From Chitinophagales bacterium (GTDB lineage Bacteria > Bacteroidota > Bacteroidia > Chitinophagales > LD1), in contig JBGAUW010000011.1 in assembly GCA_044228435.1 (NCBI GenBank), positions 69,812 to 133,811 of the forward strand: a DNA stretch of 64,000 nucleotides, written 5' to 3'. Positions 53,701-58,076 of this stretch are shown one piece after another. Under the pieces are notes generated by a model. The model made no database searches. It worked only from the letters and a program-made list of their open reading frames with translations, and was not told the origin of the DNA. Position numbers and translations under genes: made by a program. How positions within the stretch are numbered: the stretch's first letter is position 1; every line of letters begins with the position of its first letter.

Positions 53701-54111
53701 ATGAACATTTACATTAAAGCAGGCGCTGTATTTTTATTAAGTGTGTTGTTTTGTTTAATAGCACCTGCGGCAAGGGCCCAATGCCCGGCTAAAATAGTTA
53801 CCGATAGCATTTCATTTTCAAGCGGGGGCAATGTTGCCCGGCCCGATGCGCTGGCACAAGAGGGGGCTGGCAGCACCTACCAGCTGAGTAACTTTTCTAT
53901 TAACGGTATTAAGCAGAAAGCGGTTAATCAGCAATTGATTAAACAATTGGGTTTTCGCAAGGGCTATAGTTTTACGGCTACCACAGCCGGCTTGCAATCT
54001 ATTGCTCAACAGGTTTGCGAGGTAAGCGGCTATCATTTAAAAAAGCTCACCATGGCGTTAGACCAAAACATAAATGGTGCGGCAATGCTCACTTTTGATT
54101 TTGAAAGATAA
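53701..54111 (+). CDS. Hypothetical secreted protein
   Basis: Signal peptide ending ARAQ; 136 aa. Confidence 0.6.
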   Translation: MNIYIKAGAVFLLSVLFCLIAPAARAQCPAKIVTDSISFSSGGNVARPDALAQEGAGSTYQLSNFSINGIKQKAVNQQLIKQLGFRKGYSFTATTAGLQSIAQQVCEVSGYHLKKLTMALDQNINGAAMLTFDFER

Positions 54112-54112
54112 C

Positions 54113-54163
54113 AGGTCATTGCAAGGCGCGCGGCTTTGCGCGCAACGAAGCAATCGCATAAGC
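54113..54163. repeat. Single REP of the GTCATTGC...GAAGCAATC family
   Basis: GGTCATTGCAAGGCGCGCGGCTTTGCGCGCAACGAAGCAATC; same family as the GIY-YIG flanks. Confidence 0.7.
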
Positions 54164-54410: not shown

Positions 54411-56069
54411 ATGGAACCACTTTTTCAATTCGACTTACCAAAAGACCAGTCATCTATAATTAAGGTGTTTGGCGTAGGCGGCGGCGGAAGCAATGCCGTA
54501 AACCACATGTTTGACCAGGGTATAGTAGGCGTAAACTTCGTAGTGCTAAATACCGATGCACAGGCGCTTGATATGAGCCGTATACCTAATAAAATGCAGT
54601 TAGGGCCTGCTTTAACACAGGGTTTGGGTGCAGGTGCACGCCCGGAAGTAGGAGAGAAGAGCGCCGAAGAATCAATCGATTCTATCCGCGAGTTGCTTTC
54701 TAAAAACACAAAAATGATTTTTATTACCGCCGGTATGGGCGGTGGAACTGGTACCGGTGCTGCACCGGTGGTAGCACGTATAGCCCGCGAAATGGGTGTG
54801 CTTACCGTTGGTATTGTTACCACGCCGTTTTGGTTTGAGGGTAAAGCACGCTACAACCATGCTATTGAAGGCATTGAAAAGCTGCGTGAGAATGTTGATA
54901 CCCTGCTTATCATCAATAACGATAAGATACGCGAAATGTATGGCAACCTTAAACGCAGCGAAGCGTTTGGCCATGCCAACAATATATTAACCACAGCTGC
55001 CAAGGCTATATCGGAAATTATTACCGTGCCGGGCGAAATAAACGTGGATTTTGCCGATGTGCAAACCGTAATGAAGAATGGTGGTTCGGCTATAATGGGC
55101 TGCGCAACTGCCGAAGGCGAAGACCGTGCCCTGCGTGCAGCACAAGGCGCCTTAAACTCGCCGTTGCTGAACGATAACGAAATACGTGGTGCCAAAAAAG
55201 TATTGGTAAACATTACCACCGGCACTATGCAGGTTACCATGGACGAGATTGGCGAAATTATGGAATACGTGCAGGAAGCTGCCGGCAGCACCGATATTAT
55301 TTTGGGTGCCTGCGACGATCCTTCTTTAGGCGATAAACTTTCAGTTACACTTATTGCCACCGGTTTTGAAGTTGCCCGTAAAGCATCTGGCTTTATTGAG
55401 CAGAAGGTAGTAAAGGTATATGAGCTGAACGATAAGCCGTTGGTTAACGAAGTAGTGGCCCCCGTAGTAAACGTGGTAGCCCCTGTGGTAGAAGTAGCCC
55501 CGGTAACCAATATTGCCCCGCCATTAATGGATGAGCAGCCGGTAGTAAAGTTAGAAGAAGATGTTTACAGCCTGTTCGACCTTACAGAGGCTAATAATAA
55601 ATTAGAGAGCCTGCTAAACGAAACAGCTGCCAACGAAAATACTTTTGAGTTTGAAGTTACCCGCGAAGAGCAAAAACTGCCCGAAGTAGAAGTAACTATG
55701 AGCGTAGTAAAGGATGAGGTAGAACCTACCATTCAACCGGTAGCCGAAACCAAAGAAGAAGACTACGTGGTATACACCAAAAAAAGCTACGAGGCCAACT
55801 TGACCGCTTCGGTACAGCAAGATGACCTTAACCGCCAGTTAGAAGACCGCAAGAAAATTTTAGCGGGCCTTAGCTACCGTTTTGGCAGCAAGCAAAATGT
55901 AGGCGAGCTTGAAAACGAGCCGGCTTACAAAAGAAAAGGTTTAGAGCTAAATGGCGAAAGCAATTTTTCTACCAACAACGATTTATCAAGGTTCAGCGTT
56001 AGCGACGACGGTACTAACCGCCCCGAGATTAAAAAGAACAATTCGTTCTTGCATGATAACGTTGATTAA
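54411..56069 (+). CDS. ftsZ: Cell division protein FtsZ
   Basis: GVGGGGSNAV, GMGGGTGTG tubulin signature, INVDFADV, Bacteroidetes C-terminus EPAYKRKG...NSFLHDNVD. Confidence 0.98.
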   Translation: MEPLFQFDLPKDQSSIIKVFGVGGGGSNAVNHMFDQGIVGVNFVVLNTDAQALDMSRIPNKMQLGPALTQGLGAGARPEVGEKSAEESIDSIRELLSKNTKMIFITAGMGGGTGTGAAPVVARIAREMGVLTVGIVTTPFWFEGKARYNHAIEGIEKLRENVDTLLIINNDKIREMYGNLKRSEAFGHANNILTTAAKAISEIITVPGEINVDFADVQTVMKNGGSAIMGCATAEGEDRALRAAQGALNSPLLNDNEIRGAKKVLVNITTGTMQVTMDEIGEIMEYVQEAAGSTDIILGACDDPSLGDKLSVTLIATGFEVARKASGFIEQKVVKVYELNDKPLVNEVVAPVVNVVAPVVEVAPVTNIAPPLMDEQPVVKLEEDVYSLFDLTEANNKLESLLNETAANENTFEFEVTREEQKLPEVEVTMSVVKDEVEPTIQPVAETKEEDYVVYTKKSYEANLTASVQQDDLNRQLEDRKKILAGLSYRFGSKQNVGELENEPAYKRKGLELNGESNFSTNNDLSRFSVSDDGTNRPEIKKNNSFLHDNVD

Positions 56070-56170
56070 GATATAAAGATTCGGTTTTCTGAATTGGCAT
56101 TCATTCCAAATTCCACATTCATAATTCCGAATTAGTAAGAGTCTCTCCTTTGTTAGTGTGTCCAAAAATT

Positions 56171-56702: not shown

Positions 56703-56870
56703 AGGTCATTGCGAGCGGTGCGGCTCTGCGCACCCGAAGCAATCCCCTAAGACAAAAGGCACAGATATCGCCAGAACTTCATAAGCGCTAATCTCAGAGG
56801 AGATTGCTTCACCCGCTCGCAAAGCCTCGGGGTTCGCAATGACCTAAACTTTGTGCGTGCTTCGCACGCG
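56703..56870. repeat. Direct repeat copy 1 (REP doublet plus terminal hairpin) left of GIY-YIG gene
   Basis: AGGTCATTGCGAG...GAAGCAATC [spacer] GATTGCTTC...TCGCAATGACCT + GTGCGTGCTTCGCACGC. Confidence 0.9.
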
Positions 56871-56906
56871 CTTTGTTATTAAAGGCATTTTTTTATTTTC
56901 ATTACT

Positions 56907-57203
56907 ATGCTTAATAGCGGCTGTGTTTACATAATGACTAACAAACACCATACAGTTTTATACATCGGTGTAACGTCTGATTTAATTGGGCGTGTTTATG
57001 AGCATAAAACTAAGGCCTTTCCAAATAGCTTTACTGCTAAGTATAATTGTAATAAGCTTGTTTATTATAATGGGTTTATGACTATAACCGAAGCAATTAA
57101 TGAGGAGAAGAGATTGAAGGGCGGTAGTAGGAAAAAGAAAATTGATTTGATAAACGCAATGAATCCAGAGTGGAAAGATTTATCGGATACTTTGTTTGGA
57201 TAG
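56907..57203 (+). CDS. GIY-YIG nuclease family protein
   Basis: CVYIMTN...LYIGVTSDL..RVYEHK, FTAKYNCNKLVYY, AINEEKRLK..SRKKKIDLINAMNPEWKDL. Confidence 0.93.
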   Translation: MLNSGCVYIMTNKHHTVLYIGVTSDLIGRVYEHKTKAFPNSFTAKYNCNKLVYYNGFMTITEAINEEKRLKGGSRKKKIDLINAMNPEWKDLSDTLFG

Positions 57204-57247
57204 CAATGTCAACAAATAGTGCGTGCGAAGCACGCACAAAAAAAATA

Positions 57248-57416
57248 AGGTCTTTGCGAGTGGTGCGGCTCTGCGCACCCGAAGCAATCCCCTAAGACAA
57301 AAGGCACAGATATCGCCAGAACTTCATAAGCGCTAATCTCAGAGGAGATTGCTTCACCCGCTCGCAAAACCTCGGGTTCGCAATGACCTGAAACTTTGTG
57401 CGTGCGAAGCACGCAC
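57248..57416. repeat. Direct repeat copy 2 right of GIY-YIG gene
   Basis: Near-identical to 56703-56870 including the internal spacer; additional GTGCGTGCGAAGCACGCAC hairpin at 57219-57237. Confidence 0.9.
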
Positions 57417-57424
57417 CTGGGGTT

Positions 57425-57886
57425 TTATTTCAACACCCCCACATGCCCTCTCAAATCCATTAAGAAATTTTGAACGGTTAAGTGGTAGCCGTTTTCTTTC
57501 GCCCATTTAGCTATATCGTGATTTAGCTGGTCGGCGTATTTTTTATGCACGGTAAACTCGCGCTTTTGTTCTTTATCGCTTACGCCAAACTCTCCTTCTT
57601 TGCCCAGTAATTCTTTATAAGCGCCGCAGTTGCGGTGTTCCAGAATATACACATCATGTATGTCATGTAAATCGCAGGCCAGTTTAAGGTGGTCGAAAAA
57701 GCTTTGGCGCCAGTTCTTGTTCTTCTCTATACCCAGCGATACACCGGCGGCAATGTATTGGTCGTAGCGGTTGGTCATATTGTCGGCTTCCATAAATTTC
57801 ACAATATTATCTACCAGGCGTAAGTCCATGCAGCTAACCAGTAATGCGTTTTTGCGTGCAGGCAGGTGTTGTAGGGTGTAGCTCAT
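57425..57886 (-). CDS. Beta-class carbonic anhydrase-like protein
   Basis: Zn ligand motifs SCMDLR (CxDxR) and EHRNCGAY (HxxC). Confidence 0.85.
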   Translation of the reverse strand: MSYTLQHLPARKNALLVSCMDLRLVDNIVKFMEADNMTNRYDQYIAAGVSLGIEKNKNWRQSFFDHLKLACDLHDIHDVYILEHRNCGAYKELLGKEGEFGVSDKEQKREFTVHKKYADQLNHDIAKWAKENGYHLTVQNFLMDLRGHVGVLK

Positions 57887-57970: not shown

Positions 57971-58076
57971 GCATGTCAGTCTGAACGCAGTCGAAGACAA
58001 GTGCTTCCGCCTGCGCAAATGACGCACTTCGACTACGCCCGCCTGAACGGAACGGGCAGACTCAGTGTGACATTTG
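57971..58076. repeat. REP-like palindromic doublet, copy 2 (with 23-nt insert)
   Basis: Reverse complement of 22908-22990 with extra CCGCCTGAACGGAACGGGCAGAC at 58039-58061. Confidence 0.85.

Follow-up and report, generated by a model that had tools for sequence, protein, structure and literature searches.

A stretch of 64,000 nucleotides from the genome of a Chitinophagales bacterium, hereafter the window (contig C30, 69812-133811), contains a small gene for a GIY-YIG nuclease enclosed by two direct repeats, R1 and R2, and this locus raises the question whether nuclease and repeats form one functional unit and whether the nuclease moves the repeats. The host is a wastewater bacterium, with an assembly of 5.67 Mb in 48 contigs and a G+C content of 43.5%. 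An earlier note on this DNA had read the repeats as doublets of repetitive extragenic palindromic (REP) sequences and the whole as a candidate REP-mobilising element without a RAYT transposase. The first half of the question can be answered with some confidence: the gene probably encodes an Ssn-type nuclease, for which R1, R2 and the 59 dispersed repeat units of the same family, here called A units, would serve as cognate recognition hairpins. The pairing of such nucleases with hairpin repeats was already published in 2025; new here are the repeat variant and its organisation in doublets, both of which lie outside the published pattern.

The gene (56907-57203) is enclosed by R1 (56705-56869) and R2 (57250-57416), with a period of 545 bp from the start of one repeat to the start of the other. 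The individual elements are arranged as follows.

56705..56744, + strand: left A unit of R1, with its GTCAT tag at the outer (left) end
56745..56801, no strand: non-palindromic spacer of R1, 100% identical to the spacer of R2 and 75-85% similar to the spacers of other doublets
56802..56843, - strand: right A unit of R1, with its tag at the right end, adjoining H1
56853..56869, no strand: hairpin H1, GTGCGTGC-TTC-GCACGC, of a type that accompanies one A-doublet subfamily
56907..57203, + strand: single-domain GIY-YIG nuclease gene (putatively Ssn-type), 98 aa, Pfam PF01541, E 6e-14
57219..57237, no strand: hairpin H2, an inverted copy of H1 found by repeat search, the left H of the second element
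57250..57289, + strand: left A unit of R2 (GTCTTTGCGAG...)
57347..57387, - strand: right A unit of R2; near-identity with a divergent strain stops sharply at 57350/57351, near the inner edge of this unit
57398..57416, no strand: hairpin H3, GTGCGTGC-GAA-GCACGCAC; the loop is TTC in the divergent strain

The elements named in the earlier note, among them the two repeats, the reading frame and the short hairpin between them, all lie at or within 2 bp of the positions it gave. R1 and R2 share 158 identical positions of about 167 aligned nucleotides, with 3 gap positions and a flipped 3-nt loop (95.2% identity by blastn). Each comprises a forward unit GTC(A/T)TTGCGAG...GAAGCAATC, a spacer of 57 nt, a reverse unit GATTGCTTC...TTCGCAATGAC and a hairpin GTGCGTGC-nnn-GCACGC, so that the description as inverted doublets of REP-like hairpins with an additional hairpin holds. 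After R2, the best match of R1 in the genome is just 78% identical; the two repeats are therefore each other's closest relatives, or arose from one another. The same R1 and R2 junctions are found in contigs from activated-sludge, bioreactor, wastewater and groundwater metagenomes of several independent studies.

The 98-aa protein matches the Pfam GIY-YIG profile PF01541 over profile positions 2-76 of 78 (protein residues 5-78), and no second family was matched in the Pfam and NCBIfam profile searches. It thus consists of the catalytic domain and a short basic C-terminal helix region, with no separate DNA-binding domain. The Ssn proteins described by Chenal et al. 2025 (Nat Commun 16:2388, PMC11893778) are single-domain GIY-YIG proteins of ~94 aa (CDD cd10448), and Y6, Y17 and E64 are the residues that were mutated in SsnA of N. 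meningitidis (PMC11893778). In an alignment of 26 homologs of the window protein, Y8, Y19, R29, H33 and E67 are invariant, and by the residue numbers published for SsnA, Y8, Y19 and E67 match these three. The spacing between the two tyrosines is 11, as in SsnA. Between tyrosine and glutamate it is 48, compared with 47 in SsnA and also in homologs with a loop one residue shorter. On these sequence features, membership in the Ssn family is very likely. Metatranscriptome contigs cover 57001-57171, which suggests that the gene is transcribed, DNA carry-over being an alternative source of such contigs.

To establish how regularly homologs of this gene occur together with A units, an even sample of 401 Bacteroidota genomes was searched with a homolog cut-off of E<=1e-12 and a strict repeat pattern, GTCATTGCGAG-N(0-55)-GAAGCAATC, with the reversed pattern as a control. 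A homolog was present in 175 of the 401 genomes (44%), often in 2-10 copies each, and the repeat pattern in 103, while the control pattern occurred in none. Both gene and repeat were found in 85 genomes, the repeat only in 18, the gene only in 90 and neither in 208, so that the two traits co-occur (odds ratio 10.9, Fisher p 1e-20, not corrected for phylogeny). At the level of single loci, a unit lies within 300 bp of the gene at 22 of 32 Bacteroidota homolog loci (69%), and on both sides at 16 (50%). A scan of species-representative genomes yielded 80 loci in at least eight phyla, with proteins 50-68% identical, and A units are present at 72 of them. The 80 loci span Bacteroidota, Cyanobacteria, Chloroflexota, Omnitrophota, Saccharibacteria, Rhodothermales and the alpha-, gamma- and delta-proteobacteria. 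A compact cassette of ~400 bp, in which the gene stands between a forward and a reverse A unit, is frequent across these phyla. In the pooled set, 93 of 112 loci (83%) have an A unit within 400 bp. The earlier note had proposed that homologous nucleases without flanking repeats would speak against the association; flanked homologs are the rule.

The type of repeat follows the nuclease clade, a point that the earlier note had also wanted checked. Five homologs carry a K-(K/N)-W-x-R-(E/D) motif instead of K-G-G-S-R-K; none of them has A units, and four of the five have perfect CGTC-tagged hairpins instead. One hairpin of this subclade, GCGTCATTCCCGTGCAGACGGGAATCTTA, is close to the Neisseria repeat NTS, CGTCATTCCCGCGMAVGCGGGAATCYRG, whose relatives make up the published SRM repeats (PMC11893778), and another fits the published SRM pattern; SRM/NTS-like hairpins are carried by the homologs L037 and L044. 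On a maximum-likelihood tree of the 112 proteins, the state changes once between A units and perfect hairpins, compared with 4 changes in each label shuffle inspected. The direct-repeat layout recurs as well. Of 20 paralog loci in six other genomes, 11 have an upstream flank that recurs as a direct repeat downstream (78-95% identical), and these repeats are not common to different paralog loci. Hence, the arrangement of R1 and R2 is typical of the family.

In another Bacteroidota genome, two copies of the nuclease gene alternate with A units (loci L022, G174:C1:1336082-1337094, and L052). They form a tandem array of the order unit-gene-unit-gene-unit with a period of ~743 bp and 94% identity, as would be expected if flanking repeats had recombined unequally.

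Within the genome of the window, the count called for by the earlier note gave 59 A units, 42 of which are arranged in 21 doublets of 131-174 bp. In all 21 doublets the GTCAT tags face outwards, and no neighbouring pair is oriented otherwise. Stop-to-stop frames of at least 150 codons make up 88% of the genome but contain only 11 of the 59 units, so that the family is essentially intergenic. For the motif GTCATTGCGAG, 42 occurrences compare with ~2.7 expected. The ends of the unit are nearly invariant, its interior falls into a few classes, and the first base of the tag (N)GTCAT can be any of G, C, A and T. Folded as a single strand, the unit consists of a 5-bp ATTGC/GCAAT outer stem followed by an internal loop and an inner hairpin or insert that varies between 0 and 45 nt. 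For the left A unit of R1, single-strand DNA folding gives the 5-bp ATTGC/GCAAT stem, the internal loop and an inner GTGCG/CGCAC hairpin, with -10.3 kcal/mol. Genome-wide, A doublets are only ~75-80% alike. The solo REP of the same family that had been noted upstream of the cassette is an A unit:

54115..54155, + strand: solo A-type unit GTCATTGCAAG...GAAGCAATC, directly 3' of the open reading frame (ORF) 53701-54111, found by pattern and repeat searches

The H hairpin has 9 genomic copies, all of which adjoin A units, and at C13:60851-61040 a doublet has one H on either side. H2 is 96% complementary to H1, flanks included. R2 together with H2 and H3 represents the full form, a doublet between two H hairpins, while R1 is without the left H. 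The 3-nt loop of the hairpin is flipped among copies, with TTC in H1 and GAA in H2 and H3, and also between strains, since changes at 57406-57408 give H3 of the divergent lineage a TTC loop. These flips look like hairpin-templated loop inversion. ORFs of 50-67 codons run through R2 (57209-57412 on the - strand, 57349-57510 on the + strand and 57354-57506 on the - strand); they are by-products of the repeat and not genes.

REP sequences flanking a single enzyme gene would usually point to a RAYT, and a RAYT with the same repeats elsewhere in the genome had been named as a finding that would speak against the nuclease. The genome has five Y1_Tnp genes (RAYT or IS200-like), at C26:2288-2632, C46:62534-62764, C15:1465-1635, C20:2423-2590 and C21:651044-651250. 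Four are visibly flanked by palindromes of their own, GTAGGGA-type at C26, ACTTCCGAAGT...ACTTCGGAAGT at C46, GTCATCCGATGAC at C15 and CCCCGCGGGG-type at C20. Neither A units nor units of the second family described below (B) lie within 1.5 kb of any of the five, and a RAYT as mobiliser of the A repeats was rejected for this genome on this basis. The repeats are tied to the GIY-YIG gene and not to a RAYT. RAYT-REP and GIY-YIG-repeat systems coexist in this one genome.

A second GIY-YIG paralog, at C4:24899-25228 (- strand), encodes a UPF0213-like protein of 110 aa that is 39% identical to the window protein. It is flanked on both sides by B units, at C4:24884-24897 and C4:25282-25295. These have the form ATGTCA-xxx-CTGAGCGNAGTCGAAG-x'x'x' with covarying stem triplets and occur in ~100 copies, mostly in near-identical doublets, and are thus more abundant than A units. 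Across the phylum, B-type units stand near the gene at 11 of 30 loci of C4-type homologs and A units at none of the 30, while B units are found at 2 of 29 window-type loci; from this distribution, A and B are two cognate nuclease-repeat pairs. One B doublet lies in the window, close to the cassette:

57971..58075, no strand: B-family repeat doublet between a carbonic-anhydrase-like gene and an alpha/beta hydrolase gene, cognate to the C4 paralog and not to the window gene

Two more small GIY-YIG paralogs are located at tRNA genes, at C34:78297-78497 (+ strand) and C43:118367-118567 (+ strand). One lies inside or beside the tRNA gene, the 3' part of which is duplicated downstream; the other directly follows a tRNA gene, and the 3' end of the tRNA and the terminator are repeated downstream of the nuclease gene.

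The gene order in relatives shows that the cassette is a variable part of this locus. As the genus relatives are only ~70% identical, gene order was compared and not the exact ends of the insertion. In three of them, FtsZ, GNAT and hydrolase genes follow each other; only a short gap without repeats separates the convergent GNAT and hydrolase genes, and the cassette is missing. This is the empty site the earlier note had asked for. In this genome the same gap holds R1, the nuclease gene and R2, followed by the carbonic-anhydrase-like gene and the B doublet. Homologs of the nuclease in two other species of the genus stand at other loci and are also flanked by A units.

The carbonic-anhydrase-like gene (57425-57886, - strand, Pfam Pro_CA_2) is, like the cassette, extra DNA in the gap between the GNAT and hydrolase genes. 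It is missing at the same position in the genus relatives, and in the nearest relative it has another gene context (a 1.9-kb contig with no GNAT or hydrolase gene beside it). In the spacer between ftsZ and the GNAT gene (56068-56137), one groundwater-metagenome strain is without 68 bp right after the ftsZ stop codon (joint skipping 56069-56136), a small indel polymorphism.

Strains were compared on Logan metagenome contigs, which break inside repeats and drop rare variants. A divergent strain was found in four runs, which belong to different studies, and a fifth run contains it as a minor form. Between 56717 and 57350 each contig of this strain has 0-1 differences, while divergence is ~5% leftward in the GNAT gene and reaches ~9% over 57351-57560. 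One contig spans 57052-57560 and has 19 differences, every one of them to the right of 57350; the chance of this under uniformity is ~5e-8. The hot spot at 57351-57560 covers the right unit of R2, H3 and the 3' end of the carbonic-anhydrase-like gene, and divergence falls to ~1.5% further into this gene. Since the cassette is near-identical between flanks that have diverged by 5-9%, the comparison of these sequences indicates that lineages have recently exchanged the cassette or a tract with its limits inside the repeats. Within single genomes, paralogs are 67-73% identical in DNA and often clustered or in tandem arrays; at this level of identity they are not fresh transposition copies.

Several observations weigh against the assignment as an Ssn-type nuclease with its cognate repeats. 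The shortest A-unit forms fold weakly, with -2.7 kcal/mol, and the unit is not a simple perfect hairpin. The published SRM pattern, HGTCWYN(0-2)YYVSBRHN(0-5)WNVSBRGN(0-2)RNCYNB, has no match in the 3.3-kb window locus and matches 1 of the 80 related loci. NCBIfam gave no specific model and one weak, meaningless match only, and in a profile search of the PDB, which holds no Ssn entry and no close relative, the nearest solved structures are UPF0213 proteins (E 2.7e-6). The statistics on the co-occurrence of gene and repeat are not corrected for phylogeny; 18 of the 103 repeat-positive genomes have no homolog at E<=1e-12, and 90 of the 175 homolog-positive genomes have no strict unit. Finally, joints that would result from excision, from circles or from solo doublets were not seen in the metagenome contigs, which lose rare variants.

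How could such a pair work and persist? Four purified Ssn enzymes bind their folded repeat solely in single-stranded DNA and cleave a few nucleotides upstream of it, on one strand only and not in duplex DNA (PMC11893778). By analogy with these characterised homologs, each A unit would fold where DNA becomes single-stranded, e.g. at replication forks or in incoming DNA, and the enzyme would bind the hairpin with its unpaired 5' GTCAT tag and cut that strand a few bases 5' of the tag. As all doublets have their tags outward, each strand could be cleaved at one site, which lies at that strand's 5' edge of the doublet. Recombination stimulated by nicks, template switching and repeat exchange could then duplicate or swap repeats together with the DNA between them, the gene included. 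We infer that spread by recombination and template switching is more likely than RAYT-like cut-and-paste. The pair of gene and repeats would persist as a semi-selfish cassette, and, as in Neisseria, it may in addition restrict or influence how incoming single-stranded DNA recombines.

A more far-reaching explanation is that of an autonomous mobile element, an analogue of the REPIN/RAYT system, in which the nuclease cuts at the outward tags and excises and reinserts both gene-less doublets and the gene-bearing unit. We consider this possible but not probable. The outward orientation of the tags in 21 of 21 doublets is like that of REPINs, the single-copy nuclease gene is embedded in its own repeats, and compact cassettes of forward unit, gene and reverse unit (~400 bp) occur in many phyla at 50-68% protein identity. 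Moreover, the cassette stands at other loci in genus relatives in which the window site is empty, B doublets are nearly identical at many dispersed sites, the A repeats are linked to no RAYT, and the same hypothesis was raised by Chenal et al. (PMC11893778), in whose work mobilisation of the repeats or of the cassette by the nuclease is not demonstrated.

Several points speak against such an element, and mobilisation of the repeats or the whole cassette by the nuclease, which the earlier note had put forward as a possibility, is the part of its reading that is not supported. GIY-YIG nucleases hydrolyse DNA with no covalent protein-DNA intermediate, so that such an enzyme can cut but cannot paste without host functions. 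The paralogs, at 67-73% identity and locally clustered or in tandem, are old and not fresh dispersed copies, and the similarity of ~75-80% among A doublets leaves no sign of a recent burst. No target-site duplication or conserved target is evident beside the 21 doublets, and the metagenome contigs, in which rare forms are not visible, contain no excision joints. Lastly, repeats persist in the 18 repeat-positive genomes that are without a homolog. An autonomous class of element in which a single-strand nuclease, with host repair, propagates itself and gene-less doublets, a class undemonstrated in prokaryotes, therefore seems doubtful to us. If it existed, it would be a functional analogue of RAYT/REPIN and would explain the spread of "orphan" CGTC-tagged REPs, and the same logic would extend to the UPF0213-type GIY-YIG protein with its B repeats and to the tRNA-nested GIY-YIG cassettes in this genome.

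Alternatively, the nuclease may be a domesticated host function that acts at repeat-flanked loci and there restricts or shapes recombination with incoming single-stranded DNA. The repeats would be spread by other means, and their position beside the gene would reflect regulation or co-inheritance. In N. meningitidis, SsnA reduces transformation by NTS-flanked DNA (PMC11893778). The divergence of ~9% beside R2 (57351-57560), compared with ~1.5% further in, recalls the elevated diversity of genes next to dRS3 in Neisseria, and the gene is apparently transcribed. Yet natural competence is not known for this uncultured sludge member of the Bacteroidota, and a patchy distribution (44% of genomes, 1-10 copies each) with high protein identity across phyla is more like that of a horizontal element. 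The own-site flanks of the gene at 83% of loci would also be left unexplained. We consider a domesticated role rather unlikely.

Homing has been established for GIY-YIG homing endonucleases, for which a hydrolytic nuclease suffices. The cassette could accordingly be a homing-type selfish gene for which the repeats are landing pads: a nick or cut in a gene-less array would be repaired from a gene-bearing copy, by which the gene would come to stand between two repeats. The gene always stands between complete repeats with direct-repeat flanks, and the limits of the near-identical segment in the divergent strain (0-1 differences per contig, as opposed to 5-9% in the flanks) lie inside R1 and R2, as a gene-conversion tract primed in the repeats would leave them. 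However, the characterised Ssn enzymes cut only single-stranded DNA (PMC11893778), while a double-strand break is required in classical homing. The pattern among strains could equally be the result of transformation or ordinary homologous recombination between them, and the one divergent lineage seen represents a single event. We regard a homing-type gene as unlikely.

That the adjacency arose by chance, through local tandem duplication of an ordinary REP doublet enclosing an unrelated small gene, would equally give repeats that are 95% alike and at most 78% alike to other copies, but is extremely improbable and was rejected on the recurrence of the nuclease-repeat association, with 93 of 112 loci in at least eight phyla flanked, the repeat type tracking the nuclease clade and a second repeat family at the second paralog.

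The preferred reading, an Ssn-type nuclease with A units as its recognition hairpins, has consequences beyond this locus. A very conserved repeat type, GTCATTGCGAG...GAAGCAATC, accompanies one nuclease clade in at least eight phyla and escapes the published search pattern; pairs of Ssn and repeat are for this reason probably commoner than has been counted. The pair of the C4 paralog and the B units would extend the pairing of nuclease and repeat beyond the published Ssn (cd10448) clade. With two GIY-YIG/repeat pairs, two tRNA-linked GIY-YIG cassettes and five RAYT-like genes, this one genome is a natural system for comparing how hairpin repeats are maintained, and the outward tags of the doublets and the near-identical cassette in diverged strains offer testable handles on whether the nucleases spread the repeats. 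The nucleases themselves are candidate site-specific cutters of single-stranded DNA with new specificities.

The pairing of a GIY-YIG nuclease with REP-like repeats is not in itself new. Chenal et al. found SRM repeats near 71% of Ssn genes and on both sides of 42%, likened the NTS-ssnA-NTS arrangement to an insertion sequence and discussed the parallel to IS200 and RAYT-REP systems; Bacteroidota are unmentioned in the main text (PMC11893778). A literature search for GIY-YIG together with "repetitive extragenic palindromic" returned no paper, and the study of 2025 alone covers the system. The window cassette shares with Ssn/SRM the single-domain GIY-YIG protein of ~95-100 aa, flanks, on one or both sides of the gene, of oriented hairpin repeats whose 5' (C)GTCAT tag is unpaired, and a dispersed, mostly intergenic repeat family. 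The flanked fractions are similar, with 69% and 50% (on both sides) at the 32 loci of the phylum compared with 71% and 42% published, and close homologs (56-61% identical) are flanked by NTS-like hairpins. The unit (N)GTCATTGC...GCAATC agrees with NTS (CGTCATTCCCGCG...GCGGGAATC) in its unpaired tag and in a stem that begins with A-T-T. Whereas SRM/NTS has a perfect TTCCCGCG stem, that of the A unit is bipartite, ATTGC...GCAAT, with an internal loop and a variable insert. Unlike SRM, A units also form doublets of 131-174 bp with tags outward, a semi-conserved spacer and, in one subfamily, an extra outer hairpin.

The second known relative is the class of CGTC-tagged REPs, mostly head-to-head dimers, defined by Di Nocera, De Gregorio & Rocco 2013 (BMC Genomics 14:522, PMC3733652). 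These occur in Bacteroidetes among other phyla and coexist with GTAG-type REPs and RAYTs, and no dedicated transposase was found for them (PMC3733652). The A units agree with them in the unpaired (C/T)GTC tag (NGTC here), the A-T first stem pairs and the head-to-head, tags-outward doublets, but have a 5-bp outer stem with a variable inner part of 0-45 nt instead of a stem of 8-9 bp and a loop of 4-5 nt, allow any of G, C, A and T as first tag base, and are paired with a nuclease. Judged by these motifs and folds, the A units are a variant of both the published SRM and the CGTC-tagged REPs.

The likeness to REP/REPIN-RAYT systems lies in the organisation: a single-copy enzyme gene flanked by its own hairpin repeats, inverted doublets between genes, and several cognate enzyme-repeat pairs in one genome. 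It does not extend to the enzyme, a hydrolytic GIY-YIG nuclease where RAYT is a Y1 HUH tyrosine transposase, or to the tag, (N)GTCAT in place of the GTAG of REPs. With UPF0213/YhbQ-type proteins (1zg2 BH0048, 1ywl EF2693) the window protein shares a single domain of ~100 aa in a weak relationship; no repeat association is described for UPF0213, while the UPF0213-like C4 paralog has B-type repeat flanks. Finally, GIY-YIG homing endonucleases such as I-TevI and the Seg proteins have the same catalytic domain and behave as selfish genes, but they possess a separate DNA-binding domain, cut duplex DNA and have no dispersed hairpin flanks, while the nuclease of the window is a single-domain protein of 98 aa set between its own repeats.

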